NCBI GenBank assembly: GCA_963664405.1
Contig: OY761158.1
Span: forward strand, 4,992,001 to 5,056,000
DNA: 64,000 nt
Source of the DNA: Thermoanaerobaculia bacterium
GTDB lineage: Bacteria > Acidobacteriota > Thermoanaerobaculia > Multivoradales > Multivoraceae
Direction: 5' to 3'
The notes beneath the pieces are model-generated. The model had not been told where the DNA came from. It searched no databases and worked only from the letters and a program-made list of their open reading frames with translations. Positions 1 to 43,548 of the stretch are shown here, piece by piece (the first letter of the stretch is position 1; each line of letters starts with the position of its first letter). The position numbers and the translations under genes are program-made.

Positions 1-1835
1 GCCTCGTCGTATCTGCCGGAACTGTAGAGAACCATAGCGATCCCGGTCTGAGAAAGGGGGTCGAGTGGATCCGCCTCGACAGCCCTCTCGAACTGAGCGA
101 GAGCTTCATCGAATCGCCTCATCCACCACAACCGCCAGGCGGACCAGCGGTGCGCATCTCCGCTGTCAGGACTCAAGGCCAGCGCCCGCCCGAAGGAGCT
201 CTCGGCTCCGGCCCAGTCCCTTCTGTACGTCACTCTCATGATGCCTCGCATCACATGTACTTCCGCCAAGCTGCTATTCAACTCGATGGACCGATCGATG
301 GCGGACCGCGCGATGGGATACGCCTCCGTCGGGGGGATCTCGAACATCGGGCCGGCCCCCCCCATGAACATCGTTGCACCCGCAAGCGTGAAGTAAGCCT
401 CCGCGTACTCCGCATCGAGCTCGATCGCCTGCTTCGAGTATTCGACGGCTGTCTGAAGGTCCGGAACAGTGAGTTTGTGGAAGTGATAGCGCGCTTTCAG
501 ATAGAGCGTGAAGGCCTCTCGGTTTCTCGTGCGCCGCTTCACGAGATTCTCGCTGTCGGTGCCGAACAGCTGCACCCTGAGCTCGTCGACGATCGCTAGC
601 GTGATCTCGTCCTGGATTGCGAAGACATCTTCCAGCTCTCTGTCATAGCGCTGGGACCACAGGTGGTAACCATCGCTGACATTGACGAGCTGCGCCGTGA
701 CCCGAATCCGCGCGCCAGCCTTTCGAACGCTTCCTTCGAGCACGGATCGGACCCCCAGCTCCTTCCCGATCTCGCGAACATCGACATCGCGGCCTTTGAA
801 CGAGAAGGCCGAAGTCCGTGCGACGACGTGCAGGTTCTCGAGCTGTGTCAAGGCGTTGATGAGCTCCTCCGCCATGCCGTCACAGAAATACTCCTGTTCC
901 GGGTCGGCGCTCATGTTGGCAAAGGGAAGCACAGCGATCGAAGGTCGCTTCCCGTGGTGTTGCTCTCCTCGACCGCCCCCGGATCTCTCTTCCAGGGCCT
1001 CGAGCTCGATCGCTAGGTCTCGGGCGGATTGCCACCGTCGATCCGGATTCTTGTCGAGGCATCTGCTCACAATCCAATCCAGTCGAGGCGGGGATAGAGG
1101 TTGGTGTCTCGACGGGGGATCTGGATCCGAGCGCAGAATGGAAGCGATCAGATCCGCCTGGCTGTCTCCGCTGAAGGGCCGCGATCCAGAAACCAACTCG
1201 TGAACGATGCAGCCGAGCGCCCAGATATCAGCCCGAGCGTCGACTTGTCCGCCCTGCAACTGCTCCGGAGCCATGTAGGGCATCGTGCCGAAGATGTGTC
1301 CTTCCTCCGTTATCGCTGCCGCCATTGTGGTCGCCTCGGTGTCGACTACCTCGCGGTCGGCACTGCCTCGCGCAAGGCCGAAGTCGACAACCTTCGCTCC
1401 CGTTACAGTCAGCATCACATTGCCCGGCTTGAGGTCGCGATGGACGACAGCCCTCCGATGAGCCGCCTCGATCGCCTCGGCGATCTCCCCCGCGACTCGA
1501 AGAGCCTCCTTGATGGGGAGCGCACCCTTTTTCAGCCGATCTTCGAGCGTTTCCCCCTCTAGGTATTCCATGACGAGGTAGTCGAGCCCGTTCTCTGAGC
1601 CGACGTCGTACAGCGTGCATATGTTTGGGTGCTGCAGCTGGGAGATGGTCTTCGCCTCCCGCTCGAAACGCCTCTTGAAGGTGGCGTCCTTGCTCAGTGA
1701 GGAAGGCAGGACCTTGACGGCGACATCACGGCCGAGACGGGTATCACGAGCCCGATACACCTCCCCCATGCCGCCCTTGCCGCGCAGCTCGACGATCTCG
1801 TAGGGACCGAGGCGGGAGCCTGGTTCTAGAGCCAT
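1..1835 (-). CDS. K1: Ser/Thr protein kinase with TolB-N-like and TPR domains, cytoplasmic type (runs off the window edge)
   Basis: Manual translation from ATG 1835: MALEPGSRLGPYEIVELRGKGGMGEVY, VAVK, HRDLKPGN, DFG, APE; then SIAVLPFANMSADPEQEYFCDGMAEELI (TolB-N-like) and TPR-like helices. Absent from the ORF track because there is no stop in the window. Confidence 0.93.
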   Translation of the reverse strand, partial: MALEPGSRLGPYEIVELRGKGGMGEVYRARDTRLGRDVAVKVLPSSLSKDATFKRRFEREAKTISQLQHPNICTLYDVGSENGLDYLVMEYLEGETLEDRLKKGALPIKEALRVAGEIAEAIEAAHRRAVVHRDLKPGNVMLTVTGAKVVDFGLARGSADREVVDTEATTMAAAITEEGHIFGTMPYMAPEQLQGGQVDARADIWALGCIVHELVSGSRPFSGDSQADLIASILRSDPDPPSRHQPLSPPRLDWIVSRCLDKNPDRRWQSARDLAIELEALEERSGGGRGEQHHGKRPSIAVLPFANMSADPEQEYFCDGMAEELINALTQLENLHVVARTSAFSFKGRDVDVREIGKELGVRSVLEGSVRKAGARIRVTAQLVNVSDGYHLWSQRYDRELEDVFAIQDEITLAIVDELRVQLFGTDSENLVKRRTRNREAFTLYLKARYHFHKLTVPDLQTAVEYSKQAIELDAEYAEAYFTLAGATMFMGGAGPMFEIPPTEAYPIARSAIDRSIELNSSLAEVHVMRGIMRVTYRRDWAGAESSFGRALALSPDSGDAHRWSAWRLWWMRRFDEALAQFERAVEADPLDPLSQTGIAMVLYSSGRYDE

Positions 1836-1841
1836 GAGTTG
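1765..1841. repeat. 77-bp exact repeat (5' end of K1), identical to 7389-7465
   Basis: Direct base-by-base comparison. Confidence 0.9.
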
Positions 1842-1894
1842 AATAGAAGTCTACCGCCCACGGGCGCTATGGCCGAGCACGAGGATCACACCCG

Positions 1895-1987
1895 TGTCGC
1901 AGAGCACCCACAAAGACGACATCGCGCCGATTTTGGGGTCTATCGTCCTTCAGCTATGCCTGTCGTGGTCCGCCACATATTGCGACA
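1895..1987. promoter_or_regulatory. Pair of TGTCGY-N15-RCGACA palindromes (1895-1921, 1961-1987)
   Basis: tgtcgc-agagcacccacaaag-acgaca and tgtcgt-ggtccgccacatatt-gcgaca, 66 bp apart, upstream of K1. Function is inferred. Confidence 0.7.
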
Positions 1988-1991
1988 TCTC

Positions 1992-4682
1992 TCAGTCGGT
2001 TGGCACGAGGCGTTTCAGCTCCTCTAGCCAATTCAGGACGACGGTAATCGTCATGGTTTCGGTCTCCTCTACCTCAGGAATTGCAAGCATGAGGAAGCGG
2101 CCGTCGCGGGCGACATCGTAGTTCGGAAAGTGATCTTCCTGTGAGAAATATGGGTGGCTCCAGAGCTCAATCGGCTCGTCATGTAGCAGTTCGGGTTCGG
2201 TCTCGATTTCCACAGCCATCATCCGGTCCCGGACGCGGTAGTACAGCTCGTCTCCCGTCGATGACCACACCGGCTGACTACCGCCGCCTTGGGATATTTG
2301 TTCCGCCCTTTCCGTTCCAGGATAGCGTCGAACCCAGACCTCGGACTGCCCAGTCTCATCAGAGCTATAGACGATCCAACCCCCTTGTGGAGCGAATTTC
2401 GGAGAAGCGGCATCGTAGGTCGCGTCCGTCAGTGGCTCGGGCAAGCCTCCCCGGGGCAGGACCCATATCCTCGAACCGTCGGCAGATACTTCCCGGAATG
2501 CCAGGGATTCCCCATCGGGTGACCACGATCGGGGCATCTGATAGTTGTCGCGAAGAAGCACTTCTGTGCGTACGGCATCTTCATCCACACGCTTCTCGAA
2601 CATGTCCCCGTTCACGGTATAGGTCAGTGTTTCACCGTCGGGTCTCCATGCAGGGTTGTACTCGATCTCGTCCTCCCCCACCGGGAACGCCCCGCTCCCG
2701 TCGATGTTCATGACCCAGACCTTGCCGATTCCGTGAGCGTCGGTTCGGGAGGTCGCGAGCCGATCGCCCGCCGGAGAGATCTGCAGATCGAAGTACAGCC
2801 CCAGTGGCGCATCGATGAGCGTCTCGTGGCCCTCTCGATCCACCCAGGCGGGCTGTCTTTCCAGACCCATTGTGCCTTGCACAAAAACCAGATCTCCGGT
2901 CGGTGAGAGATCGAAAGAAGCGTGCTCCAGCCCCGCACTATTGCCGGCTGCGATGCCGTCCTCCGCCGTCTGTATTCGACCCATTTCAAGAGTGTCCAGG
3001 TCGAATGAAACCAGCCGTAGGTTCCCGTTCTGCGTAAATGCAATGTATCCGGGCGACAGATATCGTGGCTCCGATCCCGACAGGCCGAGATCGACCCAGT
3101 CGCCTGTGTCGAGCGACAAACGAGCGATTCGCGATCCGTCCTTCGTTCCAATTGCAAACAGCACCGTCGTGCCGTCAGGCAGGAATTCAGGATGTCCGTG
3201 AGCGATCTGACCGCCTCCTGGATCCGGAATTGTGAGCGGTCGGGGAGCACCTCCCGTTAGGGAGACTTGGACGAGCCCGGATGGAATGCCATTGCCGAAG
3301 ATGATCAGGTCATCCGGTCCCCAGGCGACGCCGTAGACAGGCCCTACGCTGGCGATATCCAGTGGTGCGCCACCTCCAACTGGAACTCTTTGTAGTTTTC
3401 CGTTGGCCGTAAACCCCACCCACGCACCATTGGGGGAGAAGAAAAGATCTTGCGCCCCTTCGGTTCCGGCCAGAAGCGTACCCTCGCCTTCGGCCATGGC
3501 TCGGACGAATATCTGACGGACCGGTTCACGTCCTTCTTCTCCGGAGGGTGCTACCCGGGTTGAGAGGTAGGCGATGCGTGACCCGTCTGGCGAGATAGCA
3601 ATCGGACCATCGACCCCAGACCCGATCCCCTGATTTGCGCCCAACGGAACGTCAAACGAAAAGCGAACCGTTGGAGAGTAAACGGACCGATCGGTGGCGA
3701 AGTTCCATGCGGCGAATCCGGCCACCAGCACGCCGAGCGCGAAAGCGATGCCCCATGTCAGGCCACTTGGCGATCTGGTTCGAGTCGCGGTCTGGGAGTG
3801 AGCTCCCGGCTCCTCAGCGTCGGCAGCGTCATCGCCGACCGCCTGAAGCTCGATGCCCACATCCAAGGCCGACTGCCAGCGTCGCTCGGGGTCTTTGGCC
3901 AGACAGCGGGACACCACCCAGTCGAGACGTCGTGGAGCGAGCTCTTGGACCACGCTCAGCGGTCGAGGCTCGGAGGCCATGATGGCGGTGGTCAGACTCG
4001 CCTGGTTGTCGCCCTGGAAGGGCCGCTCGCCGGTGATCATCTCGTAGAGCACGCAGCCCAGGGCCCAAATGTCGGTGCGGGCATCGGTGTCCTTGCCTTC
4101 GAGCTGTTCCGGTGCCATGTAGAGCTGCGTGCCGAGGATCGAGCCCTGACCGGTGATCGGCTGCATCCTCGTTGGTGACTGAGTGTTGGCCGCTTGTGGT
4201 TCCGGCTCGATGCTCTTCGCCAGTCCGAAGTCCAGCACTTTGACGCCGGTCTTGGTCAGCATCACGTTGCCGGGCTTCAAATCCCGATGCACGATTTCTG
4301 CCTTGTGGGCGGCGTCGATCGCTGCGCCGATCTGGCTGCCGATCTCGAGCGCTCGGGCGATCGGTAGAGCGCCCTTCTCGAGGAGCTTCTCCAGGGTCTC
4401 GCCTTCCGCCACCTCCATGACCAGGAAGCGAGTGCCGCCGGCTGCTTCGAAGCTATAGAGCGTGGCGATGTTCGGGTGCTTGAGGCCGGCCAGGACCTTG
4501 GCCTCGCGCTCGAAGCGAGCCAGCCGGTCAGCATCTTCGGAAACCTCATCGAGAAGCAGCTTGATCGCTACTTCCCGCCCGAGCTTGGTGTCTTTGGCTC
4601 GGTAGACCTCTCCCATTCCCCCAGCACCGAGGGAAGAGACGACCTCATAGTGGCCAAGCTTCGTGCCTGCTTCTAGCGCCAT
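1992..4682 (-). CDS. K2: Ser/Thr kinase + TM helix + TolB/PD40-like beta-propeller
   Basis: 896 aa; GAGGMGEV, VAIK, HRDLKPGN, DFG, APE; hydrophobic segment; repeated SPDG/WSPDG blades; ends VVLNWLEELKRLVPTD. Confidence 0.95.
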   Translation of the reverse strand: MALEAGTKLGHYEVVSSLGAGGMGEVYRAKDTKLGREVAIKLLLDEVSEDADRLARFEREAKVLAGLKHPNIATLYSFEAAGGTRFLVMEVAEGETLEKLLEKGALPIARALEIGSQIGAAIDAAHKAEIVHRDLKPGNVMLTKTGVKVLDFGLAKSIEPEPQAANTQSPTRMQPITGQGSILGTQLYMAPEQLEGKDTDARTDIWALGCVLYEMITGERPFQGDNQASLTTAIMASEPRPLSVVQELAPRRLDWVVSRCLAKDPERRWQSALDVGIELQAVGDDAADAEEPGAHSQTATRTRSPSGLTWGIAFALGVLVAGFAAWNFATDRSVYSPTVRFSFDVPLGANQGIGSGVDGPIAISPDGSRIAYLSTRVAPSGEEGREPVRQIFVRAMAEGEGTLLAGTEGAQDLFFSPNGAWVGFTANGKLQRVPVGGGAPLDIASVGPVYGVAWGPDDLIIFGNGIPSGLVQVSLTGGAPRPLTIPDPGGGQIAHGHPEFLPDGTTVLFAIGTKDGSRIARLSLDTGDWVDLGLSGSEPRYLSPGYIAFTQNGNLRLVSFDLDTLEMGRIQTAEDGIAAGNSAGLEHASFDLSPTGDLVFVQGTMGLERQPAWVDREGHETLIDAPLGLYFDLQISPAGDRLATSRTDAHGIGKVWVMNIDGSGAFPVGEDEIEYNPAWRPDGETLTYTVNGDMFEKRVDEDAVRTEVLLRDNYQMPRSWSPDGESLAFREVSADGSRIWVLPRGGLPEPLTDATYDAASPKFAPQGGWIVYSSDETGQSEVWVRRYPGTERAEQISQGGGSQPVWSSTGDELYYRVRDRMMAVEIETEPELLHDEPIELWSHPYFSQEDHFPNYDVARDGRFLMLAIPEVEETETMTITVVLNWLEELKRLVPTD

Positions 4683-4743
4683 GCGAGTGGCGAGAGTCTA
4701 CCGCTCGACTGCCTTCAACGACTTATAGGCCGATCGCGATACT

Positions 4744-4770
4744 TGTCGCGGTCCGCCACCAAAGGCGACA
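4744..4770. promoter_or_regulatory. TGTCGC-N15-GCGACA palindrome upstream of K2
   Basis: tgtcgc-ggtccgccaccaaag-gcgaca. Confidence 0.7.
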
Positions 4771-4780
4771 AGGCCCGCGC

Positions 4781-7459
4781 TCACGAGCCCCCCTCGGAGA
4801 ACATCTCGAGCACCTTGGCCCGCCAGTTCTGGACCAGGATCACTTTTTCCTCCTGGTCCTCAGCGGCCTCGACCATCAGGAAGCGGCCGTCCGGATGCAC
4901 ACCGTAGTTGATGATGCCTAGGTTCGGACCCCTTCGGAACCGATCTTCGAACAGGGTCTCAGGCCGCCCGATGACCAACTCACTGCCCTTCTTCTCGATC
5001 GGGATGGTCATCATGTGGGTCGGGCCGCGGTAGAAGATCTCGTCTCCCGAAGAGGACCATGCCGCTTCCTGGCCGCCTTCGAAGGTGAGCTGGCGCGGCT
5101 CCCCTGGGCCCGGGAAGGGGATCAGCCACAGCTGCGACATAGCGTCGACGGGGTCGAATCCGGCGTAGGCGATCCAGTCCCCATCGGGGTGGAAGCCTCC
5201 CGAGCGAACGAAGACACTGTCGTCGACCACAGAGCGTACCTCGCCGCTACTGCGGTCGAGGGCGACAAACCCCTCCTCGAAGAAGTGGTAGAGCAACACC
5301 CAGCGCCCGTCGGCGGAGACGCCGAAATAGGATTGAGCCTGCTCGGAGGGCAGTAGCCTCTGCGCCGGGGCGCTACGATCGGCCGGCTGGAAAAACACCT
5401 GTGCGTAGTCGTCGACGCGATTCGCCACGAAGAAGATCTCTTTGCCGTCTGGCGGGATCTCTGTCGCGACCGAAGTGGAGCCCGTCTGAGCCGGTCGGCT
5501 CCACGAGCCGGTGGCGAGGTCGAGGGCCCATTGCTCGTTGCCGTCGCCGGCCGAGTTTCGCGAGTGGACCGAGATCCTGTGACCATCGAGGGATGGCCTG
5601 GGAACGGCGAAGGCCTTGATCTCAGGAGCCACCGGCTCGACCTCGCCGCCGCCGCGGTTCACCCACACCAGCCGAGACTGGTTGCTCACCTGCCCTCTCA
5701 CGTAGACGAGATCACCGGACTTTTGAACGTCGAAGCGACCAATGTCGACCGGAATCCCGGGCACGCGAGCTACCTCGGTTTCGACTTGTCGAGGCGGAGC
5801 CGCGAGCTCTCCGGTCACCGAGTCGATGGGAGCCGCCCACAGCGCTCCGCTTCGATAGAAGGCCATCAACCCCGGTTCGACGTAGGTGGCCGCGGCGCCT
5901 TGCGTGAGCACCCGCCCCTCGCCGGTCCCCAGATCCACGGCGACGAGGTCGGCCCAGAACCCTTCTCTTCGATCCTGCGGCAGAGTCGCCAGCAGAGTTT
6001 GACCTCCGGGGAGGAGAGCGGTTGCCATGCCATCACCGATACGCTCGGGCTCGCCGCCGGTAACCGCGACTCGCCAGATCTCGGCTTCGTTTGGGTTAGT
6101 GCGCGATGGTACATGAGTGTAGTAAATGGAGCCGTCCTCTCCCCACGGCCCTGGACTAAAGACGTTCTCCGCGATCGTCGTGGCTCCTCCTCCCTCGACA
6201 GCTACCGTTTTCAGCTTGCCACTGCTGTCAACGAAGACCAGATTCCCGCCGTCGGGGGAGAAGAAGGCAAATCCTCCAGCTCCCTCAGTCCCCGAGATCG
6301 GTTGCGGAAACAGCGAATCGAGGGAGCGACGAGCCAGGATAGATCCGCCACCGGCCTGCTGTTGCGGGAATACCAGAGTACGCCCGTCAGGCGAGATCGT
6401 CGCGAGTCCTTCGTCGGCCGCGATGTCGAGGGTCGTCACGGTCCAGACCTCCGCGCCGCCCTCGACCGCCGGCACATTCGAGCCGCGAGGAAATGCGAAG
6501 CCGATTACCATCCCGACCAGGAGAACGAGGCCCCCGGCCAGGGCGGCGACTCGCGGACGCAGGGCCCGGTCGGCGGTGCCTCCTGTAGGCGCCGCCGTCT
6601 CGGTCCCCTGGTCGAGGCCGCCCAGCTCCAGCGCCACATCGCGCGCCGACTGCCAACGCCGATCGGGATCCTTGTCGAGACAGCGCTCGATCACCCAGTC
6701 GAAGCGGGCCGGCGCGAGCGGCTGGAGCTCCGACAGAGCGCGCACCCGACCGGTCATGATCGACGCGATCAAGCTGGCCTGAGAGGTCCCCTCGAACGGC
6801 CTTGCCCCGCTGGCCATCTCGTAAAGCACGGCGCCAAGGCCCCAGATGTCGCTGCGAGTGTCTGCCTCCTTACCTTCGAGCTGCTCGGGCGCCATGTATT
6901 GCAGCGTGCCGAGAATCGAGCCTTCGCTGGTCAGTGGCTGGGTGATGGTCGGCGTCTGCGTGCTCCCGCTAAGGGCACCGACCTGGACTCCCTTGGCGAG
7001 GCCGAAGTCGAGCACCTTGGCTCCCTCGCGAGTCAACATCACATTGCCGGGCTTGAGATCGCGGTGGACCACTCCCTGGCGATGAGCGGCGTCGATGGCC
7101 TCGGCGATCTGGGATCCGATCGTCGCCACCTCATCCAGCGGCAGGGCGCCGCGTCGAAGCCGGTCCTCGAGGGTCTCTCCCTCCAGGTACTCCATGACCA
7201 GGTAATCGACACCGTCCTCGCTGCCGATGTCGTAGAGCGTGCAGACATGGGGATGGGTCAGCTGCGAGATGGTCTTCGCTTCGCGCTCCAGCCGCTGACG
7301 GTAGAGCGTGTCCTGCCCGAGCTCCTCAGGTAGCACCTTGATGGCGACATCCCGCTCCAGGCGTGTGTCACGACCCAGGTACACCTCTCCCATGCCGCCC
7401 TTGCCGCGCAGCTCGACGATCTCGTAGGGACCGAGGCGGGAGCCTGGTTCTAGAGCCAT
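4781..7459 (-). CDS. K3: Ser/Thr kinase + TM helix + TolB/PD40-like beta-propeller
   Basis: ORF 4781..7540, with start reassigned to ATG 7459 (MALEPGSRLGPY, matching K1); complete kinase motifs; SPDG repeats. Confidence 0.95.
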   Translation of the reverse strand: MALEPGSRLGPYEIVELRGKGGMGEVYLGRDTRLERDVAIKVLPEELGQDTLYRQRLEREAKTISQLTHPHVCTLYDIGSEDGVDYLVMEYLEGETLEDRLRRGALPLDEVATIGSQIAEAIDAAHRQGVVHRDLKPGNVMLTREGAKVLDFGLAKGVQVGALSGSTQTPTITQPLTSEGSILGTLQYMAPEQLEGKEADTRSDIWGLGAVLYEMASGARPFEGTSQASLIASIMTGRVRALSELQPLAPARFDWVIERCLDKDPDRRWQSARDVALELGGLDQGTETAAPTGGTADRALRPRVAALAGGLVLLVGMVIGFAFPRGSNVPAVEGGAEVWTVTTLDIAADEGLATISPDGRTLVFPQQQAGGGSILARRSLDSLFPQPISGTEGAGGFAFFSPDGGNLVFVDSSGKLKTVAVEGGGATTIAENVFSPGPWGEDGSIYYTHVPSRTNPNEAEIWRVAVTGGEPERIGDGMATALLPGGQTLLATLPQDRREGFWADLVAVDLGTGEGRVLTQGAAATYVEPGLMAFYRSGALWAAPIDSVTGELAAPPRQVETEVARVPGIPVDIGRFDVQKSGDLVYVRGQVSNQSRLVWVNRGGGEVEPVAPEIKAFAVPRPSLDGHRISVHSRNSAGDGNEQWALDLATGSWSRPAQTGSTSVATEIPPDGKEIFFVANRVDDYAQVFFQPADRSAPAQRLLPSEQAQSYFGVSADGRWVLLYHFFEEGFVALDRSSGEVRSVVDDSVFVRSGGFHPDGDWIAYAGFDPVDAMSQLWLIPFPGPGEPRQLTFEGGQEAAWSSSGDEIFYRGPTHMMTIPIEKKGSELVIGRPETLFEDRFRRGPNLGIINYGVHPDGRFLMVEAAEDQEEKVILVQNWRAKVLEMFSEGGS

Positions 7460-7465
7460 GAGTTG
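7389..7465. repeat. 77-bp exact repeat (5' end of K3), identical to 1765-1841
   Basis: Direct comparison. Confidence 0.9.
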
Positions 7466-7517
7466 GCGACATCTTACAGTCGCCCGGTGGATCAGCGGCT
7501 CAGAGCTCGAATTGTGT

Positions 7518-7610
7518 TGTCGCACCTCACCATATTTCACGACAGCCCCTCTCCTCAGAGGCTTATTCGTTTTCGGCTATACGTGTCGTGGTGCGCCCCA
7601 AAGTGCGACA
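7518..7610. promoter_or_regulatory. Pair of TGTCGY-N15-RCGACA palindromes (7518-7544, 7584-7610)
   Basis: tgtcgc-acctcaccatatttc-acgaca and tgtcgt-ggtgcgccccaaagt-gcgaca, again 66 bp apart, upstream of K3. Confidence 0.7.
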
Positions 7611-7614
7611 TCTT

Positions 7615-10303
7615 TCAGTCTGTGGGCACGAGGCGCTTCAGCTCCTCGAACCAGTTCTGGACCAGGACGACGTCATTGCGCTCGCCCCCCTCGGTCGTCT
7701 CCAGTGGTTTGACCATCAGGAACCTCTCGCCGTCCGGGTGGATGTCGTACATGCGACCGACGGAGACGGCATAGTTTCCCGTGAAGATCACTTCAGGTTT
7801 CCCGGGCTCGAACGAGGGCTCGGTCCTGACCGGCACCGCCATCAACCGATCGCCGGCACGATAGAAGATCTCGCTGCCGTCCGGCGACCACAGCGGTTCG
7901 GTGCCGCCTCCGGCCGAGATCGGAAAACGGCCACCGGCTTCTACGTCGGGAAACGGCCTCACATAGATTCGGTCTTCGTCCGCCGATTCGTCCGACTGGT
8001 AGACCAACCACCGGCCATCGGGTGAGATTTCTCCATTCAGCTCACGGAACTCCGAGGCTAGAAGCGGTTTCGGCGATCCTTCGCCTTCCAGCGACAGCAC
8101 TCCCAGATCGAACCCTGACGTCACTCCGACGCGGTAAAGCAGGGCCTTGCCGTCTGGGGAGATCGACGACGGATATAGATACTCCGCGAACTCGATAAGG
8201 AGCTTCACTGTTCCCGTTCCGTCAAACGCTCGCTGGTAGAACCCCAGGGTCCCGTCACGGTCGGAGACGAACACCACTTCCCGGCTGTCACGAGTCCAGA
8301 CCGGATACACGTCTATTGCCGGATCAGCGGTCAGCCGGTCCAGAGGAGACTCCCGCGTGAGGTCCCAGATCCACACGTCCTGGTCTTCATCGCGGGAAGA
8401 GACCGCCACCCGCTGTCCATCCGGAGAGATTCGGGGATAGATGTAGAACCGGGGTGGGGCCGAGAGAGCCGCCTCTCGTCCGTCGCGTCCCACCCAGACA
8501 AGGGTCCGTTGCGCCCCTCCCCCCATGCCACCGGTGACGTACACCAAGGACCCGTCCTGCGAGAAGTCGAAGTTCACAACACCAAAGGTCTTGGTGTTGA
8601 CGCCTTCTAGGACAGGGACCGGATCTCCCCGCACTTCCAGACTCCCCGCATCGAAGGCCACCGCATGAAGCGTACCGTTCAGCCCATAGACCAGGTGCCC
8701 GGTGGGCACGTACCGGGCACCGGCACCTCCAAAGACCAGGTCCTTCCGCTCCCCGGTGGTGAGAGATTGAGCCACGATCTGCGCGTCGTCGACGTTCGAG
8801 CTCGTAAAGACCGCAAAGAGAACGGCTTCGCCACCCGGTAGAACCTCGGGAAAACGATAGGAAAGCTCTCCTTTATCGGGATCTAGCGCGACCAGCCGCT
8901 CCAGTTCACCGCCTCCCCCCGACACCCGATAGAGCCCCTCGTTGAGGAAGCCAAGGACAATGGTGTCGTCCGCGCCCCAGCTCGCGCCGAGAAGAATAGA
9001 GGGTAGTTCGCACAAAGTCACCGTTGGCCCCCCGAGAATGGGGACTTTCTTAAGAGTCCCGCCGGACTCGAAGGCGACCCAGGCCCCGTCGGGCGAGAGG
9101 AAGGGAGACTCAGCGTCCTCCGTTCCTCGCAGCTCGGAGCCAACGATGCGGTCCACCCAGCGAACATAGAGAGAGCCTTCGCTCTTGTAGACCACCACCC
9201 GACCATTGCGTGCCATCGCCAGATCGCGAGCAATGGGAAGAGAACCCGTCATCGGCGCGCTGGGAGCGGCGCTCAGCACCGCACGAACGACGGGGCGCTC
9301 GGGTGGTGCGGGCTTCAGGGTCCAGACGGCGATGCCAGCGATCACCGCGCCGGCAGCGAGGGTGGCGAGGGCCAAAGGTACAGGACTGCGCTCTTCCGCC
9401 GCGGCCGCGCCGGGCGTCGGCTCATCGCTCTCGGGAGCCTCGATGACGGTTTCGATTTCCATCAGGGCATCACCGATGTCTCGCAGCCGTTGTCGTGGAT
9501 CCTTGCGTAAACACCGCTCAAGCAATTCGCGTAGTCTTCGAGGAACGCTTGCGGGGAGCGGGTCCCAGCTCGGCACATCGCGCAACACAGCGCCTACTGT
9601 CTCCATCGCATCTTCGCCCTCGAACAAGCGTTGTCCAACAAGGGCCTCGTAGAGACAAACACCGAAGGCCCAGACGTCGGTGCGCTTGTCGACTGCCTTC
9701 CCCCGAGCCTGCTCGGGCGACATGTAGGCAGCAGTCCCGAGGATTTCACCGCGCTGTGTCGCAGCTAGCGTCAGCGTTGGCGACATCGACATCGAGGCGT
9801 CACCCGACTCGCCGACATCTCCGACCATTGCCTTGGCCAACCCGAAGTCAAGGATCTTGACGTTGCCGTCGTCGGTGACCTTGATGTTGGCGGGCTTGAG
9901 GTCGCGATGAATGACGCCCTTGTCGTGAGCAGCTTCTAGCCCTTCCGCGATCTGGAGGAACAGCGGCAGAGCCTCCTCGACCGCAATAGGCCCTCGACTG
10001 ATCCTCTCCGCAAGGGTCTCGCCCTCGACCAGTTCCATGACCAGGAAATTGGTGTCTCCGTCCTTCTCGAAGCCGTGGAGCGTAGCGATGTTGTTGTGGT
10101 TCAGAGAAGCAAGGACGCGGGCTTCCCGCTCGAACCTCGCGAGCCGTTCTGGATCGGTCGACACCTCCTCCAACAGCAGCTTGATCGCGACCTCACGACC
10201 GAGCTTCGTGTCCTTCGCCCGGTACACCTCTCCCATGCCTCCCGCACCGAGGGAAGAGACCACTTCGTAGTGGCCGAGCTTTGTGCCTGCTTTCTAATGC
10301 CAT
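7615..10303 (-). CDS. K4: Ser/Thr kinase + TM helix + TolB/PD40-like beta-propeller, with a +1 frameshift after codon 4
   Basis: ORF 7615..10263. Removing one A from GAAAGC (10291-10293) restores MALEAGTKLGHYEVV from ATG 10303, as in K2. HRDLKPAN, DFG, SPE; ends NWFEELKRLVPTD. Confidence 0.9.
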
Positions 10304-10350
10304 CGACTGAGCGACATTCTACCGGCAGCCGCCAAGGGCCGATTTCGAGG

Positions 10351-10377
10351 TGTCGCGATCCACCAGATTCTGCGACA
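10351..10377. promoter_or_regulatory. TGTCGC-N15-GCGACA palindrome between divergent K4 and arylsulfatase
   Basis: tgtcgc-gatccaccagattct-gcgaca. Confidence 0.7.
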
Positions 10378-10494
10378 CTGACGATGTTGTCCATTGCACC
10401 TTCCACTAGAAAAGGTGCCAGTATCAACCCCGCCGAGGGCGTGGGCTCCAGGAGCCTGAATTCGGCTAGCCCGGCTAAATAGGAGATCTGGGAC

Positions 10495-12189
10495 ATGAAT
10501 GCACGGAGAATCCCGATACTCGTCTTGATGCTGACGCTGTTTCTGGGCGCCTGCGGAGCGTTCGAGCCGGATGAGGCAGTGCCAGTGGAGACGGAAGAGA
10601 GGCCCAACTTTCTTCTAGTCGTTGCCGACGACATGGGATACACGGACACAGGCCCCTTCGGCGGTGAGATCGAGACCCCGAATCTCGACCGGCTCGCAGC
10701 CTCCGGGGTCCGTTTCGCGGACTTCCACGTATCCATGTCCTGCTCGCCGACGCGCGCGATGATGATGTCTGGCATGGACAACCACCTGGCCGGTCTCGGC
10801 AACATGGGGGAGCTCATCACGCCCAATCAGCGCGGCAAACCGGGTTACGAGGGTTACCTCAGCCGCGATGTCATCAGCCTGCCTGAGGCGCTCGGGAGTG
10901 GCGGGTACCACACCTACATGGCCGGAAAGTGGCACCTGGGACACGAGCCGGATCAGCGTCCCTTCGCACGGGGCTTCGAGCGCTCGCTGGCGTTGATGTA
11001 CGGTGGCGCGAGCCATTGGAATGACAGGCATGGGCTCATTGCCGCGCAGGATCCGGTCATCTACACGCGCAATGGCGAGAAGCTCGAACAACTGCCCGAG
11101 GATTTCTACTCGAGCAAAAACTACGCCGACTTCCTCATGGAGTCGATTCGAGAGAACCACGGCGACGGCAAGCCCTTTCTTGCCTACCTCGCCTTCACAG
11201 CGCCTCATGACCCTCTGCACGTGCCCGAGCCTTGGCTCAGCAAGTACCGAGGGCGGTACGACGAGGGCTACGAAGCTCTGAAGGCAAGTAGGGCTGAAGG
11301 CGCGGCCCGGGCCGGCGTCGTGCGGGCCGGCGCCCCGCTGCCCCAACGCCACTCGATGACTCCGGCCTGGGACACCTTGAGCCCCGAGGAGAGAACCCGG
11401 CAGTCCCGGATGATGGAGGTCTATGCGGGGATGGTCGACAACATGGACCACCATCTCGGCCGAGTGCTGGATTTCCTCGACGACATCGGCGAGCTCGACA
11501 ACACCGTCATCATTTTCTTTTCGGACAACGGGCCCAATCCGTGGGACAGCGAGGATTATCCCGGCAATCGGGACGGGAACTTCATGGACCTTTTCGACAA
11601 CAGTCTCGACAACCTCGGCAAGCCCGGCTCGAACGTCGCCTACGGAAGCGGCTGGGCTCAGGCGAGCGCCGGTCCCTACAGTTACTTCAAGATGACGGTC
11701 GCCGAGGGAGGCACACGGAGCCCTCTGATTGTCGCTGGACCGCAAGTGAACAACGGCGGACGGATCAACGATACCCCCGTAACCGCCATGGATGTGATGC
11801 CGACCCTCCTAGACATAGCGGGCATCGAACACCCCGAGACGTTCAACGGCAGACGGGTCAAGCCGATGATGGGCCGCTCGATGAAAGGCGTGGCAGCCGG
11901 CACCGCAGAGCGCGTGCACCCGGAGGACACACTCTTCGGCCACCAGGCCTTCGAGGAGCACGAGCTTTCCGGCGAGATGCTGGGCGGCAAGTTCGTGCGC
12001 CGCGGCGATTGGAAGGCGCTCTTCGTGAGCCGGCCGTATGGCCCGAACGAGTGGCAGCTCTTTGATCTCGCCGCCGACCCCGGCGAAACCGATGACCTGG
12101 CGGGTGAGCATCGGGAGCTGTTGGAGGAACTGACTGCGGGCTGGGACCAGTACGCGAACGACGTGGGGGTTGTCCCACCGGAGGGCTAA
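10495..12189 (+). CDS. Arylsulfatase (AtsA-like), probable lipoprotein
   Basis: RPNFLLVVADDMG, CSPTR formylglycine motif, GKWHLG, APHDPLH, SDNG; lipobox LGAC; AGGAG RBS. Confidence 0.93.
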   Translation: MNARRIPILVLMLTLFLGACGAFEPDEAVPVETEERPNFLLVVADDMGYTDTGPFGGEIETPNLDRLAASGVRFADFHVSMSCSPTRAMMMSGMDNHLAGLGNMGELITPNQRGKPGYEGYLSRDVISLPEALGSGGYHTYMAGKWHLGHEPDQRPFARGFERSLALMYGGASHWNDRHGLIAAQDPVIYTRNGEKLEQLPEDFYSSKNYADFLMESIRENHGDGKPFLAYLAFTAPHDPLHVPEPWLSKYRGRYDEGYEALKASRAEGAARAGVVRAGAPLPQRHSMTPAWDTLSPEERTRQSRMMEVYAGMVDNMDHHLGRVLDFLDDIGELDNTVIIFFSDNGPNPWDSEDYPGNRDGNFMDLFDNSLDNLGKPGSNVAYGSGWAQASAGPYSYFKMTVAEGGTRSPLIVAGPQVNNGGRINDTPVTAMDVMPTLLDIAGIEHPETFNGRRVKPMMGRSMKGVAAGTAERVHPEDTLFGHQAFEEHELSGEMLGGKFVRRGDWKALFVSRPYGPNEWQLFDLAADPGETDDLAGEHRELLEELTAGWDQYANDVGVVPPEG

Positions 12190-12315
12190 GGCTTGCTCCG
12201 CCTCCGCCGTCGAAACGGGCTCGGTCCGAATTTGAAGGGCTAAGGGAGGTGCCACCCTTCGCCTTCCCATGGCACCTTCCACAGCGAACTATGCAAGTGG
12301 ACTTCTGGCTTGCGA

Positions 12316-12435
12316 TGTCGCAGAGCACCACAGATCGCGACACGCCTGCTCCCAGACGCCCGTAGACGTTGAGCTCTCGTAGTGGCGTGGGGTGAAAAGG
12401 CGACATCTTGTCGCAATTTTTGCTTAGGTGCGACA
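12316..12435. promoter_or_regulatory. Two TGTCGC-N15-GCGACA palindromes (12316-12342, 12409-12435) upstream of the cyclase gene
   Basis: tgtcgc-agagcaccacagatc-gcgaca and tgtcgc-aatttttgcttaggt-gcgaca. Confidence 0.65.
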
Positions 12436-12557
12436 CCAGACTTCTCTAAGCCACTGATTACAAGCTAGATCCGTGCAGGCCCTAAGCCTGTAAGAGCTCG
12501 CGGATCTGGTATGTTCACGATCATCAATCCGATTGCGATCCGTTGAGGAGGGACCCA

Positions 12558-13628
12558 ATGACGCTATGCCCGAGGTCGGCTGGCCTGATGCTTCTTACCA
12601 TCGCTGCTCTCAGCTGCGCCCCGGCTGCCGACGAAGGTGCTGAATCGACGACGGTACCCGTTTCTGTCGTTGACTCCTTCGTTCCGCCCGAGGTGACGCC
12701 CGAATCGCGCGATCTGACCCTGGCCGATATCGAGCGGATGATGGAGGAGCTGTCGAACTGGGGCCGCTGGGGCGGCGACGACCAGCTGGGCGCCGCCAAT
12801 CTCATTACGCCGGCCAAGCGACTGGAGGCGGTCTCACTGGTCACCGAGGGTATCTCTGTCTCGCTGGAGCATCAGCTGTTGACCGAAGAGGCCGAGGACG
12901 TGCCGCGGCCGTTCGACCGCCGGATGCTGGGGCTCCCCGATCTGACGGCCGAGCCTCTGTTCAGGAGCGGGGTCAGCGACGCCTACAGCATCAGCTATCA
13001 CGGTTACTCCCACAGCCACATCGACTCTCTGTGTCACATGCTCTACAAGGGGCAGATGTATAACGGATTCTCTCGGGAGACGGTAACGGAGGAGGGCTGT
13101 TCGAAGAATTCAGTCTTCAATCTGCGGGGCGGCATCGTGACTCGCGGCGTGCTTTTCGACATCCCCCGCCTCAAGGGAGTGCCCTACCTCGAGCCGGGCA
13201 CTCCGATCTATATGGAAGACCTCGACGCCTGGGAAGAGATGGCAGGGGTCACGGTTCGACCCGGCGATGCGGTCTTCGTGCGCACCGGCCGTTGGGCGCG
13301 ACGTGCGGATGTCGGCCCGTGGGCCGTCGCGGAGAGCGCGGCCGGTCTGCACGCCTCGGCGGTGCCCTGGCTCAAGGCGCGGGATGTCTCCTTTCTCGGC
13401 GGCGACGCGGCCTCCGACGTCGTGCCTTCCCAGATCGAAGGGGTGCGGCTTCCGGTGCATACTCTGACCATCGTTGCGATGGGCGTCGACCTCTTCGATA
13501 ACCAGGATCTCGAGGACCTTGCCGAGACTGCCGCAAGACTCGACCGATGGGAGTTCATGCTGGTTGCAGGTCCGCTGGCGGTCGAGACCGGCACAGGCTC
13601 TCCAGTCAACGCTTTGGCAATTTTTTAG
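12558..13628 (+). CDS. Cyclase / kynurenine-formamidase-like metallohydrolase, lipoprotein-like signal
   Basis: NWGRWG..DQLGAANLIT, HGYSHSHIDSLCH, GTGSPVNALAIF; GAGGAGG RBS before ATG 12558. Confidence 0.88.
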   Translation: MTLCPRSAGLMLLTIAALSCAPAADEGAESTTVPVSVVDSFVPPEVTPESRDLTLADIERMMEELSNWGRWGGDDQLGAANLITPAKRLEAVSLVTEGISVSLEHQLLTEEAEDVPRPFDRRMLGLPDLTAEPLFRSGVSDAYSISYHGYSHSHIDSLCHMLYKGQMYNGFSRETVTEEGCSKNSVFNLRGGIVTRGVLFDIPRLKGVPYLEPGTPIYMEDLDAWEEMAGVTVRPGDAVFVRTGRWARRADVGPWAVAESAAGLHASAVPWLKARDVSFLGGDAASDVVPSQIEGVRLPVHTLTIVAMGVDLFDNQDLEDLAETAARLDRWEFMLVAGPLAVETGTGSPVNALAIF

Positions 13629-13639
13629 GAGGCTGCCCT

Positions 13640-14365
13640 ATGGCGACTTTTGAACGCGACGGTGTTTCGATTCACTACGAGGTCCGGGGAGGTGGTTTCC
13701 CCGTTCTGCTCATTGCCCCCGGCGGGATGAAGAGCGTTATTTCGATGTGGGAGACGACTCCCTGGAACCCGATCGAGCAGCTTTCGAGCGACTATCAAGT
13801 CGTTGCGATGGATCAGCGCAACGCCGGCACCTCGAGCGCGCCGATCAGCGGCGACGATGGCTGGCACACTTACATCGGAGATCAGCTTGCGCTGATGGAT
13901 CACCTCGGTGCGGACCGCTTCCATGTGGTCGGTATGTGTATCGGGGGCCCCTACAGCATGGGGCTCATCGAGGCCGCACCGGAGCGGGTGGCGTCGAATG
14001 TTCTCTTTCAACCGATCGGTCTCGATAACAATCGAGAGGCCTTCTACGAGATGTTCGATAGCTGGGCCGACGTGCTTCGGACCACTTCTCACACCGACGT
14101 GCCGGCCGACGATTGGACTCGCTTTCGCAGCAATATGTACGACGGCGACAAATTGCTCTTCAACCTCGATCGCGACTTTGTGCGTGCCTGTACGACTCCA
14201 CTGCTGGTGCTCGCCGGGAGTGACCTCTATCACCCGGCCTCGACCTCGAAGGCGATAGCGGAGCTCGCTCCTAACGTGGAGCTCATTGAAAACTGGAAGG
14301 AGTCGCCGGACCGAGAAGCCGCTATGGAGAAGACCGCCGCCTTCCTGCGGCGCAATTCAATCTAG
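13640..14365 (+). CDS. Alpha/beta hydrolase
   Basis: IHYEVRGGGFPVLLIAPGG, MDQRNAG, GMCIGG elbow; AGGAGG RBS before ATG 13640. Confidence 0.88.
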   Translation: MATFERDGVSIHYEVRGGGFPVLLIAPGGMKSVISMWETTPWNPIEQLSSDYQVVAMDQRNAGTSSAPISGDDGWHTYIGDQLALMDHLGADRFHVVGMCIGGPYSMGLIEAAPERVASNVLFQPIGLDNNREAFYEMFDSWADVLRTTSHTDVPADDWTRFRSNMYDGDKLLFNLDRDFVRACTTPLLVLAGSDLYHPASTSKAIAELAPNVELIENWKESPDREAAMEKTAAFLRRNSI

Positions 14366-33991: not shown

Positions 33992-35443
33992 ATGGATCCC
34001 CAACGCGAGACCATCCTCGGTATGACCCGTCGGCACTTCTTCGGCCGCGCGGCAACTGGAGCCGGCGCAGTGGCGATCGCTTCGCTCCTCGGCGACGACC
34101 TCAGCGCGGTCTCCGCGACCGGCGGCATTCCCGGTGTGCCGCACTTTGCCCCCAAGGCCAAGCGCGTGATCTACCTGTTCCAATCGGGTGGCCCGTCGCA
34201 GCTGGAGCTCTACGACTACAAGCCCGCGCTGGAGAGATTGGCTCGCACCGAGCTTCCCGACTCTATCCGCAAAGGGCAGCGTCTCACCGGGATGACGGCT
34301 GCACAGACGTCGTTCCCGGTGGCGCCGTCGCTCTTCGAGTTCGCGCAGCACGGCAGGTCGGGCGCTTGGATGAGCGAGCTCGTGCCGCATCTGGCGGAGA
34401 TCGCCGATGAGCTGTGCTTCATCAAGTCGATGCACACCGAGGCCATCAACCACGACCCGGCGTTGACTTTCTTCCAGACCGGCGCGCAGCTCGCCGGACG
34501 GCCGTCGATCGGCGCGTGGCTCTCCTACGGCCTCGGCACCGAGTCGAGCGAGCTGCCGGCCTTCGTGGTCATGACCTCGAAGGGGAGCGGCCAGCCCGAG
34601 GGCGGCCAGCCGCTCTACGATCGTCTGTGGGGCAGCGGCTTCCTAGCCGGCCGCTATCAGGGCGTCAAGTTCCGCTCCGCGGGCGACCCGGTGCTCTACC
34701 TCTCCAACCCGGATGGCTTCAGCTCGGCGGCCCGCCGACGCTACCTCGACGACCTCGCCAAGCTCAACCAGATCAAGCTCGAGGACACGGGCGATCCGGA
34801 GATCGAGACGCGCATCGCCCAATACGAGATGGCGTTTCGCATGCAGACGTCGGTGCCGGACTTGACCGACCTATCGTCCGAGCCCGACAGCGTCTTCGAC
34901 ATGTACGGCCCCGACGCGCGCAAGCCGGGAACCTACGCCGCCAACTGTCTGCTGGCGCGGCGCCTCGCCGAGCGCGGCGTGCGCTTCATCCAACTCTTCC
35001 ACCGCGGCTGGGACCAGCACGCCAAGCTGCCGGAAGAGATTTCGCTCCAGTCGCGCGACGTCGACCAACCCTCGGCGGCGCTGGTCAAGGATCTCAAGCA
35101 GCGAGGTCTGCTCGAGGACACCCTCGTCGTCTGGGGTGGAGAGTTCGGCCGCGCGGTCTACTCGCAGGGCAAGCTCACGGACACGGATTACGGCCGCGAC
35201 CACCATCCGCGCTGCTTCACGATCTGGATGGCCGGTGGCGGTGTCATGCCTGGCATCACCCACGGCGCAACGGACGACTACGGCTACAACATCACCGAGA
35301 ACCCGGTCCACGTCCACGATCTGCACGCCACCATGCTTCACCTGCTCGGCATCGACCACAAGAAGCTCACCTACAAGTATCAGGGTCGAAACCATCGCCT
35401 GACGGACGTCCACGGTGAGGTCGTAGAGTCGGTGCTGGCGTAG
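33992..35443 (+). CDS. DUF1501 protein (sulfatase-like fold), Tat signal
   Basis: TRRHFF, HFAPKAKRVIYLFQSGGPSQ, LARRLAERGVRF, WDQH, GEFGR, GRDHHP. Confidence 0.92.
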   Translation: MDPQRETILGMTRRHFFGRAATGAGAVAIASLLGDDLSAVSATGGIPGVPHFAPKAKRVIYLFQSGGPSQLELYDYKPALERLARTELPDSIRKGQRLTGMTAAQTSFPVAPSLFEFAQHGRSGAWMSELVPHLAEIADELCFIKSMHTEAINHDPALTFFQTGAQLAGRPSIGAWLSYGLGTESSELPAFVVMTSKGSGQPEGGQPLYDRLWGSGFLAGRYQGVKFRSAGDPVLYLSNPDGFSSAARRRYLDDLAKLNQIKLEDTGDPEIETRIAQYEMAFRMQTSVPDLTDLSSEPDSVFDMYGPDARKPGTYAANCLLARRLAERGVRFIQLFHRGWDQHAKLPEEISLQSRDVDQPSAALVKDLKQRGLLEDTLVVWGGEFGRAVYSQGKLTDTDYGRDHHPRCFTIWMAGGGVMPGITHGATDDYGYNITENPVHVHDLHATMLHLLGIDHKKLTYKYQGRNHRLTDVHGEVVESVLA

Positions 35444-35500
35444 TCGGGTATGATCCGGTGCCGACTCGACCCAACGAGGTTTCCTAAACGAGGTTGTCCT

Positions 35501-37003
35501 ATGAAAACGATTCTCTGCCTGTACGCATTCGTCTGCGCACGGTTGGTGCGCGCGATCCCTATCCTGGGGGTGGTCCTGGTGACGTTGGCCGTTGGCTGCA
35601 ATACGGCGACGCCCGACAAGACGGAGACTCCCGAGCCACGGCCGCCCAATGCTGGGCGCCCCAACATCGTTTTCATTTTTATCGACGACCTGGGCTGGGC
35701 CGACCTGCCAGTCTACGGCAACGCCTTCCACGAGACGCCCAACATCGACCGCTTGGCGGCACAGGGGTTGCGTTTTACCGATGCCTATGCGGCGGCACCG
35801 ATATGCTCCGCGACCCGCGCCAGCGTCCAGTCCGGGCAGTACCCGGCACGCGTCGGAGTCATCGACTTCATCCCCGGGCACTGGCGGCCCTACGAGCGCC
35901 TCACCGTGCCCAAGAACCGCACCCAGTACCTGCCCCTGGAGGTCGTGACTGTCGGCGAGGCGATGAAGATGCAGGGCTACGCGACTGGCTACTTCGGCAA
36001 ATGGCATCTCGGATCCTCACGAACGGGTACGACCCCTGCCGCGCAGGGCTATGATGTCTCGTTCTACCAGACAGGAAGGGGACACTTCGACCTCGCAGAA
36101 AAGCTCACCCCACCACAAGGCGTCGCGCCCGACGATTATTTTGCCGAGGTGATTACCGACCACGGCCTCGCGTTCATGGAGGCTCATCGGGACCAACCCT
36201 TCTTCCTCACCCTCTCTCACTACGCCGTTCACATCCCGCTCGAGGCCCGGCAGGCGCTCATCGAAAAGTACGAGAACAAGGAGAAGCCGGCGGAAGGCAT
36301 CAATCATCCCGTCTACGCGGCCATGATCGAGCATGTCGACGAGAGTGTCGGCCGGGTGCTCGACACGCTCGACGAGTTGGGGCTCTCGCAGAACACGCTT
36401 GTCATGTTCTATTCAGACAACGGAGGTCTCTCCGAGCGCTACGACAAGGCCGACGGAGTCGTCGTGACGACCAACGCACCCCTGCGCGACGAGAAAGGCA
36501 GCCCCTACGAGGGTGGCATCCGCGAGCCCCTGTTGGTCCGTTGGCCCGGCGTCGTCGCCCCGGGCACGACCTCCGACGCGCTGGTGACGAGTGTCGACCT
36601 CTTTCCTACCTTTGTCGACCTCGCCGGGGGGACGATGCCGGACGGGCAGACTTTCGATGGGATCAGCATGGCGCCCGTGCTGCGCGGCGCTGCGCCGGAT
36701 GCCGAGCGTGCTCTCTTCTTCCACTATCCGGTTTATCACCATTCCGTGCCGGCGGGCGCCATCCGACAGGGCGATTTCAAGCTGATCGAGTTCTTCGATG
36801 ACGGACACACGGAGCTGTACAACCTTCGCGAAGATATCGGAGAGGCCCATGACCTCGCCGCTGACCTGCCCGAAAAGACGGCCGCGATGCAGACCTTGCT
36901 TGCCGAATGGCGCGAACAGGTCGGTGCAGCGATGCCCGTCGCGAATCCGGATTTCGATGAAGCCCGCCGCAGCGAGTGGGGGCGACATCCCGACCTTCAG
37001 TAG
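35501..37003 (+). CDS. Sulfatase (arylsulfatase A / GALNS-like), lipoprotein
   Basis: Lipobox AVGC, PNIVFIFIDDLGW, CSATR, GKWHLG, SDNGG, YEGGIREP. Confidence 0.92.
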   Translation: MKTILCLYAFVCARLVRAIPILGVVLVTLAVGCNTATPDKTETPEPRPPNAGRPNIVFIFIDDLGWADLPVYGNAFHETPNIDRLAAQGLRFTDAYAAAPICSATRASVQSGQYPARVGVIDFIPGHWRPYERLTVPKNRTQYLPLEVVTVGEAMKMQGYATGYFGKWHLGSSRTGTTPAAQGYDVSFYQTGRGHFDLAEKLTPPQGVAPDDYFAEVITDHGLAFMEAHRDQPFFLTLSHYAVHIPLEARQALIEKYENKEKPAEGINHPVYAAMIEHVDESVGRVLDTLDELGLSQNTLVMFYSDNGGLSERYDKADGVVVTTNAPLRDEKGSPYEGGIREPLLVRWPGVVAPGTTSDALVTSVDLFPTFVDLAGGTMPDGQTFDGISMAPVLRGAAPDAERALFFHYPVYHHSVPAGAIRQGDFKLIEFFDDGHTELYNLREDIGEAHDLAADLPEKTAAMQTLLAEWREQVGAAMPVANPDFDEARRSEWGRHPDLQ

Positions 37004-37061
37004 CGCGACCAGACCCGTTTCGACGCCCAAAGGTGCCACCCTGCCAAGGGGTGGAGACCCC

Positions 37062-42005: not shown

Positions 42006-42059
42006 TCGACTAGTGCTAGTGTGCTGTAACACTCGATCGTTTAGTGACTGAGCGAGACT

Positions 42060-43343: not shown

Positions 43344-43358
43344 TTAAGGGGGACCAGC

Positions 43359-43532: not shown

Positions 43533-43548
43533 CGGCGGGCCATGCCAG

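Follow-up and report, generated by a model that had tools for sequence, protein, structure and literature searches.

The window analyzed here is the whole of a 64,000-nucleotide stretch, positions 4992001-5056000 of the 6.78-Mb single-contig genome (62.6% G+C) of a Thermoanaerobaculia bacterium (GCA_963664405.1, contig OY761158.1). Four genes for Ser/Thr kinases, K1 to K4, lie on its minus strand; each codes for a protein kinase domain followed by PD40 beta-propeller repeats. These genes are accompanied by eight copies of a 27-bp element with the pattern TGTCGY-N15-RCGACA (Table 1), and it is this element that we describe here.

An initial annotation of the window had listed eight copies with spacers of exactly 15 bp. 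A pattern scan returned the same eight, where 0.03 are expected, and none of 100 shuffles of the window reached this number. The distances given there between the nearest copies and the start codons of K1 to K4 are also correct to within 1 nt of those measured (Table 1). The statement that the element stands upstream of every kinase holds inside the window but not for the genome, in which only 28 of 58 aligned kinase starts have a copy within 260 nt. For three copies the stop codon of the upstream kinase gene, which they follow by 4 to 10 nt, provides a better description than the start. The intergenic regions of K1 and K3 are paralogous.

The 27-bp element and its two classes

Over the whole genome the spacer length is strictly 15 bp: there are 100 copies with this spacer and 0-8 with every other spacer from 0 to 40. 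A genome-wide scan, which the initial annotation had proposed, thus bears out the fixed spacing. It also shows that the element is largely restricted to arrays; 91 of the 100 copies fall in nine clusters (14, 8, 19, 2, 12, 2, 11, 11 and 12 copies). Copies with one mismatch number 89 at spacer 15 and 58-148 at ten control spacers. This count is within the control range, which indicates that the family is almost free of degenerate members.

Ninety-four of the copies are distinct in sequence. In these, positions 1-5 and 23-27 are invariant, and G14, G15 and G17 are kept in 91, 87 and 85 copies, respectively; position 16 is C or T, while positions 7-12 and 18-21 are variable. The full element is TGTCGY-N7-GGYG-N4-RCGACA. 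The earlier view of a palindrome with a variable spacer is therefore right with respect to the inverted outer arms and wrong with respect to the spacer, which carries a conserved asymmetric core. Every copy that can be oriented is directed toward the downstream gene, and the direction is the same along an array. Six of the 100 copies have no clear orientation and were omitted from the analyses of flank profiles, flank families and arm sharing.

The Watson-Crick counts at the pairs 6/22 to 13/15 equal the expectation from base frequencies. Without covariation at these pairs, hairpin pairing does not extend past the five invariant pairs, and a hairpin or RNA element was rejected for this reason. 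A search of Rfam with positions 1-14000 of the window (E up to 1) gave no match except a chance match to a lncRNA, and terminator-like matches were not above those in shuffles. A repetitive extragenic palindrome or bacterial interspersed mosaic element with a REP-associated tyrosine transposase (REP/BIME, RAYT) was rejected for the same lack of covariation, for the clustering of the copies in nine arrays and for the location of the Y1_Tnp matches elsewhere. A tRNA-linked island was also rejected, since neither the window nor 11 array loci contain a tRNA gene.

The core divides the copies into class A (GGCG, n=54), class B (GGTG, n=32) and 14 of other kinds. Their placement relative to open reading frames (ORFs), as called by a crude picker based on the G+C content at third codon positions (GC3), differs. 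Class A sites follow a co-oriented stop codon, at a distance of at most 15 nt in 22 and at most 70 nt in 36 of 54 cases. The genes before them code for kinases, a methyltransferase, an amidohydrolase, and DUF1326 and DUF3047 proteins. For ten of the 54, the next 400 nt downstream contain no co-oriented ORF, and some point at genes that converge on them. Class B sites with a downstream ORF lie 58-60 nt ahead of a kinase start in 18 of 29 cases. Where both classes exist, A is ahead of B by 65-67 bp. A head type, included in the 14 others, lacks the GGYG core and marks the upstream end of an array, 93 bp away from the first B site; the pair 12409/12316 represents it in the window. The N-terminal domains of the kinases in the arrays are only about 50-60% identical to that of K2, so that the invariance of the sites is not due to recent copying.

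Table 1. Kinase genes, sites and associated features in the first part of the window (positions are those of the window).
Feature	Position	Strand	Remark
K1, Ser/Thr kinase paralog, 763 aa	1..1835	-	extends past window start
-10-like hexamer TAGACT	1848..1853	-	12 nt ahead of K1 ATG
Class B site, core GGTG	1895..1921	-	59 nt ahead of K1 start codon
39-nt A-B linker, ATAGC..GATAG motif family	1922..1960	-	
Class A site, core GGCG	1961..1987	-	4 nt past K2 stop codon
K2, Ser/Thr kinase with PD40 beta-propeller repeats, 896 aa	1992..4682	-	
Matching hexamers before K2-K4	4695-4700, 7471-7476, 10316-10321	-	
Class A site	4744..4770	-	10 nt past K3 stop, 61 nt ahead of K2 start
K3, Ser/Thr kinase with PD40 repeats, 892 aa	4781..7459	-	
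Class B site	7518..7544	-	58 nt ahead of K3 start
39-nt A-B linker	7545..7583	-	
Class A site	7584..7610	-	4 nt past K4 stop
K4, kinase with PD40 repeats, frameshift at codon 5	7615..10303	-	
Class B site	10351..10377	-	47 nt ahead of frameshifted K4 start; GCACCTT/AAGGTGC palindrome precedes at 10393-10421
Sulfatase gene, inverted, between two B sites	10495..12189	+	
Class B site, array head	12316..12342	-	no kinase after; sulfatase gene converges on site
Head-type (C-like) copy without GGYG core	12409..12435	.	93 bp from head B site; upstream array end

The frame of K4 is broken by one extra A after codon 4 relative to its paralogs (10289-10303, minus strand) and is open again from a GTG at 10263 (882 aa). 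The frameshift could mark a pseudogene, an alternative start or a sequencing error in a homopolymer. In the array at 747-779 kb a full-length RpoD-like sigma-70 gene (regions 1.1 to 4; 771143-772837) lies between A-B site pairs, after the truncated 5' end of a kinase gene.

Breakpoints inside the core and units present in different arrays

When the copies are sorted by flank family, a few variants of the left and right arms appear in many combinations. We compared pairs of copies that share the flank on one side only (at least 90% identity over 30 nt on that side and at most 45% on the other). The left arm is common in nine and the right arm in two of the 12 pairs sharing only the left flank. 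Among the 87 pairs sharing only the right flank, 47 have the right arm and three the left arm in common. In unrelated pairs the arms are common in 3.5% and 10.8% of the cases. An arm thus tends to go with the flank on its own side.

Self-BLAST of the nine arrays (at least 88% identity and at least 150 bp, shorter alignments being dropped) gave 172 alignment ends. Thirty-six of them are within 14 nt of the center of a site, where 1.1% are expected, and 19 are within 3 nt (0.26% expected). Two arrays share, at 99.7% identity, a 3.8-kb unit that contains a 1208-aa kinase. Its neighbors differ between the two, and the identity stops inside the GGCG core of an A site at both ends. A unit of 0.83 kb, 98.4% identical, is likewise bounded at A cores in two arrays; in one of them the downstream A site is a hybrid, with the left half of one site and the right half of a site from a third array. 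Another unit, which contains a 143-aa ORF and is 99.5% identical, starts at an A core in two arrays. Furthermore, a 66-bp module consisting of an A core, the linker and a B core occurs in four places, with four left and four right contexts that are all different.

As judged from these alignments, crossover between arrays is confined to positions 14-17 of the site. The outer pentamers are equally conserved; that the breaks occur in the core and not there argues against simple microhomology. Four read runs, all of them metagenome contigs at about 6x, contain joints in repeats of the kinase paralogs, with sides of 20-29 nt, and none at the center of a site; this result is uninformative as to ongoing recombination.

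Occurrence elsewhere and candidate enzymes

A scan for tandem A-N36-42-B sites in one genome per species found seven loci. Four were excluded as chance matches; the three true loci are in two metagenome-assembled genomes (MAGs) labeled as Acidobacteriota or Acidobacteria and in one labeled as Myxococcota. The three site-bearing genomes other than the source genome have about 2-4 true copies each. In a metagenome collection 36 contigs matched, of which 33 are true and three (L037, L043 and L047) were excluded as chance matches; most of the contigs have no match or only a distant match to the source genome. Conservation in relatives, which the initial annotation had suggested as a check, was not seen: 40 genomes of the same family or order have 0-10 copies each, a number that does not exceed the reversed-pattern control. 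The A-linker-B unit had no match in plasmid or phage collections.

Thirty units fit the strict pattern. In these A always has the core GGCG, and B has GGTG or GGTA. The 39-nt linker of these units is conserved across organisms as well, with ATAGC 3 nt past A, a GATAG or GATAAG motif and a CCCCGA/TCGG palindrome; it may be the site of an accessory protein. Two loci outside the source genome show the same order of stop codon, A, linker, B, leader and kinase start.

An alpha/beta-hydrolase gene with A, linker and B upstream occurs in another genome and in a metagenome contig (L021, 1990-2060; L042). It is 93% identical to a gene of the source genome that is free of sites (4949722-4950726). The copies with sites also carry a remnant of the kinase leader and of its first codons. 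This gene is thus located in a cassette in one organism but outside of cassettes in another.

The initial annotation found no gene for a cognate protein in the window. No recombinase gene is present there, since neither PF00589 nor PF00239 has a match in 4992001-5056000. Candidates exist elsewhere in the genome. The first is a tyrosine recombinase of 179 aa (5456062-5456601) with only the catalytic domain PF00589; its ORF is located 88 nt past the last A site of the array at 5.456-5.475 Mb. Past the end of another array, an A site with one mismatch (782905) is followed by a truncated copy of this ORF. Two small serine recombinases, 93% identical to each other, are further candidates. At the end of the array at 6.506-6.523 Mb, 160 bp separate the gene at 6509415-6510104 from an A site. 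The gene at 2755041-2755655 is oriented divergently to a kinase gene that is followed by a decayed A site.

An IS91-like element that codes for a 286-aa tyrosine recombinase and a 408-aa Y2 transposase contributes another candidate, its tyrosine recombinase. The element has five full copies (34790-37392, 41380-43976, 596927-599449, 615191-617709 and 887165-889767) and a partial one (1011285-1012249). Four of the full copies are located in A-B linkers, beside a head site or inside a B site; the copy at 887 kb has no site at its ends.

An IS110-family element is present in two copies that are 99.4% identical (4985456-4987019 and 779050-780613) and contain a 370-aa ORF with DEDD_Tnp_IS110 and Transposase_20 domains. 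Both copies are inserted exactly at 17|18, just past the GGCG core, of two different A sites. A partial IS110-like copy (5460111-5460710), oppositely oriented, abuts a B site at 10|11, the mirror image of 17|18.

Two more sequences near the sites were recorded. The 3.94-Mb array has, some 400 nt past its head site (at about 3944300), a sequence similar to the T-arm and acceptor end in the 3' half of a tRNA, for which ARAGORN made no tRNA call; a gene for a 424-aa integrase is at the opposite end of this array. A second palindrome family, GCACCTT-N9-AAGGTGC together with the inverse arrangement, has about nine copies in the genome, including one in the window beside K4 (Table 1) and one at about 12262-12285. 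Several copies are 20-30 nt before a 27-bp site or flank the kinase unit beside the serine recombinase at 2.755 Mb; the palindrome was also recorded in L017 (2820-2850 and 2905-2930). With only about nine copies it was rejected as the real site.

Interpretation and comparison with known systems

On the basis of sequence comparison we consider it probable, with a probability of about 0.6, that the 27-bp element is a site-specific recombination site that bounds gene cassettes in an integron-like but IntI-independent manner. A recombinase site that shuffles the cassettes had been the second choice of the initial annotation, and it is the one that the evidence supports. The inverted outer arms TGTCGY and RCGACA would be the motifs bound by the recombinase. 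Strand exchange would occur in the asymmetric core GGYG (positions 14-17), from which the site would derive its polarity. The compatible classes would alternate, with A right after the stop codon of a cassette and B 66 bp further on, ahead of a leaderless-type promoter and the kinase start. Recombination between A and A or between B and B would then excise, insert or exchange units, and such a process would have built and reshuffled the nine arrays of sensor Ser/Thr kinase and other genes. The anatomy of the site, its restriction to arrays and the historical breakpoints in the core are observed; a recombinase, its catalysis and a cycle of excision and integration are inferred.

Several observations weigh against this reading. 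The evidence for exchange is entirely historical and derives from a single genome. In the metagenome contigs none of 61 informative alignment ends is within 3 nt of the center of a site; the alignments end at the outer edges of the 93-bp A-linker-B unit, which means that the unit is conserved but that the breakpoints in the core are not replicated. Of the 87 pairs that share only the right flank, 37 differ in the right arm too; these pairs belong to sub-lineages of one leader family. No recombinase was tied to the site. Searches for close homologs of the tyrosine and serine candidates from the arrays found none in the three site-bearing genomes, in the 40 relatives or on the 39 loci (36 metagenome contigs and three genome loci), and for the tyrosine candidate none in 400 genomes of the phylum. 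The genome also has no IntI-type integrase above the cut-off of TIGR02249 (265 bits; the best stretch reached 122 and the best whole protein 205.9 bits), and no match to this model adjoins the head of an array. The odd length of the site, 27 bp, does not cleanly fit either the symmetric 2-bp stagger of the serine type or the standard 6-8-bp overlap of the tyrosine type; its dyad falls on a base, and the breakpoints can be placed in positions 14-17 but no narrower. A tyrosine-type reading of 10-7-10 is possible and has edges that match the IS110 insertions at 10|11 and 17|18, albeit with variable inner arm positions. Finally, two promoter-like features count on the same side. The distance from B to a -10-like hexamer is 29-32 or 40-46 nt, with none of 51 cases in between, so that the two classes are about one helical turn apart. 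The geometry TGTCGY-N16-CGAC, with TGTCGY as -35 and CGAC as -10, furthermore resembles the promoter of ECF41, a sigma factor of the extracytoplasmic function (ECF) type; this promoter is given as TGTCACA-n16-CGTC (PMC3426412).

These two features would fit an element that is purely regulatory, either the operator of a dimeric activator ahead of a promoter without a -35 element or itself an ECF-type promoter; in that case reassortment at the sites would be a by-product. Two distance classes one turn apart would suit a bound protein that touches RNA polymerase, although they may equally reflect two lineages of the 5' leader. The fixed distance of class B from the kinase start and the direction of the site toward the downstream gene agree with such a role. 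The hexamers (TAGAAT, TAAGAT, TAGACT, TATGAT) stand 10-13 nt ahead of the kinase ATG, and a position so close to the start suggests that the kinase messages are leaderless or nearly so. No canonical -35/-10 pair was found in 1700-12700 of the window, for which an activator would make sense. A regulatory element does not, however, account for class A, which is tied to the upstream stop codon and in ten of 54 cases has no co-oriented ORF within reach. Thirty of the 58 kinase starts lack the motif, including those of paralogs 50-70% identical to K2. Breaks of homology inside the core and whole units bounded by cores have no regulatory explanation. Membership in the ECF promoters was rejected in spite of the fitting geometry: a conserved GGYG in the spacer is not expected of them, and A sites without a downstream ORF do not agree with it. 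In addition, the six PF07638 sigma genes are at 1.93-2.11 and 5.37 Mb, none of them in an array. The favored proposal of the initial annotation, a dimeric-activator operator that co-regulates the kinases, matches the fixed spacing between B and the hexamer. It leaves most observations unexplained, namely class A at stops, close kinase paralogs that lie outside the arrays and are free of sites, the core and the breakpoints. We therefore regard a purely regulatory element as unlikely. A regulatory side role of class B is possible. Resolvase bound at res can affect transcription, and by analogy a recombinase bound at B could do so too; the regulatory and the recombination readings could hence be compatible.

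Less likely still is a hotspot, either a site of a nuclease or nickase with breaks repaired by gene conversion from paralogous arrays or a sequence favored as a target by mobile elements, which would have left the mosaics. In many homology blocks only one end falls at a core and the other lies inside a gene, although these one-sided ends may stem from the 88% identity cut-off. The IS110-family insertions, two at 17|18 of A sites and a mirror-image one at 10|11 of a B site, would be in line with a preferred target, as would the four of five full IS91-like copies in arrays or at their edges; the copy at 887 kb, without a site at its ends, would not. Cores delimit three units and the 66-bp module on either side, and such two-sided bounds are better explained by reciprocal exchange than by one-sided conversion tracts. 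No nuclease candidate turned up, albeit without a search aimed at one. That the copies are functionless residues of repeated duplication of one kinase gene and its flanks, as the paralogous K1 and K3 intergenic regions and the long blocks common to arrays might suggest, is hardly credible, because 94 of 100 copies are distinct with 14 positions invariant or nearly so amid diverged spacers and flanks, because the copies flank unrelated genes and because the unit is kept in other organisms with flanks unlike those of the source genome.

Returning to a recombination site, a broader claim is more tentative and, in our estimate, falls a little short of an even chance: marine Acidobacteriota may possess a platform for gene capture and shuffling that is independent of IntI and attC. 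In it A and B sites with the 39-nt linker would bound cassettes, and a recombinase, possibly the 179-aa tyrosine or a small serine recombinase, would move whole kinase and other genes between chromosomal arrays. A full-text literature search, which covered articles without their supplements, found no description of the motif or of kinase cassette arrays, and to judge from it an integron-like system of this kind has not yet been described. To our knowledge no bacterial platform other than the integron, which relies on a single integrase family and on attC sites in folded form, is well known for storing and rearranging cassettes of single genes. An unrelated second platform that works on double-stranded 27-bp sites and carries large signaling genes would imply that the architecture of cassette arrays arose more than once. 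It would diversify the sensory repertoire of the cell, provide a mechanism by which kinase paralogs in Acidobacteriota could form large families, and offer a new pair of short recombination site and enzyme for genome engineering.

Among known systems, the ECF41 promoter shares the outer motifs and their spacing with the element. It differs in that the element has a conserved core in the spacer, class A sites past stop codons and breakpoints in its interior.

The Xer-dependent pdif modules of Acinetobacter plasmids have dif-like sites of about 28 bp with two arms and in alternating orientation. As in these modules, short two-arm sites bound gene modules that occur in varied contexts. The orientation here does not alternate, however, and the arms are unlike those of dif; a coarse search of the source genome with a dif-like pattern gave no match.

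The res sites of small serine recombinases (Tn3/gamma-delta, Sin, beta) are similar in form. Each of their two subsites, 25-34 bp long, binds a dimer and has its helix-turn-helix motifs outermost, and the 27-bp element has the length (24-34 bp), the inverted outer motifs (positions 1-5 and 23-27) and the less specific interior (7-12 and 18-21) of such a site. According to a preprint (bioRxiv 10.1101/2021.12.07.471667), the helix-turn-helix domains of small serine recombinases read the outer 7 bp, and an oligonucleotide of a Tn3 accessory site starts with TGTCTGA. The element, with its constant outer arms and its variation further inside, is reminiscent of such sites. Recombination in res is limited to site I, whereas the breakpoints here are at both A and B; moreover, the length of the site is odd and there are about 90 chromosomal sites instead of one per transposon. 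In the res of Sin and beta a bend site lies between the subsites, and the 93-bp A-linker-B unit resembles this arrangement.

Integrons provide a parallel in organization. In both cases there are co-oriented arrays of unrelated genes, a recombination site right after the ORF (as in the A sites within 15 nt of a stop codon), and units that are bounded at the site and recur in varied contexts in different arrays. IS1111 elements target attC, as the IS110-family element is inserted into the site here. An integron proper, with attC and IntI, was rejected on account of the integrase search described above. The attC site of integrons, an imperfect palindrome with inverse-core and core sites, folds in single-stranded form into an imperfect hairpin of 57-141 bp, whereas the sites described here are 27 bp long and show no pairing covariation. 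The head of the array has no integrase gene beside it. Furthermore, the two site classes alternate as direct and not as inverted repeats, and the cassettes are large (2.7-kb kinase genes) and bring a -10-like element of their own.

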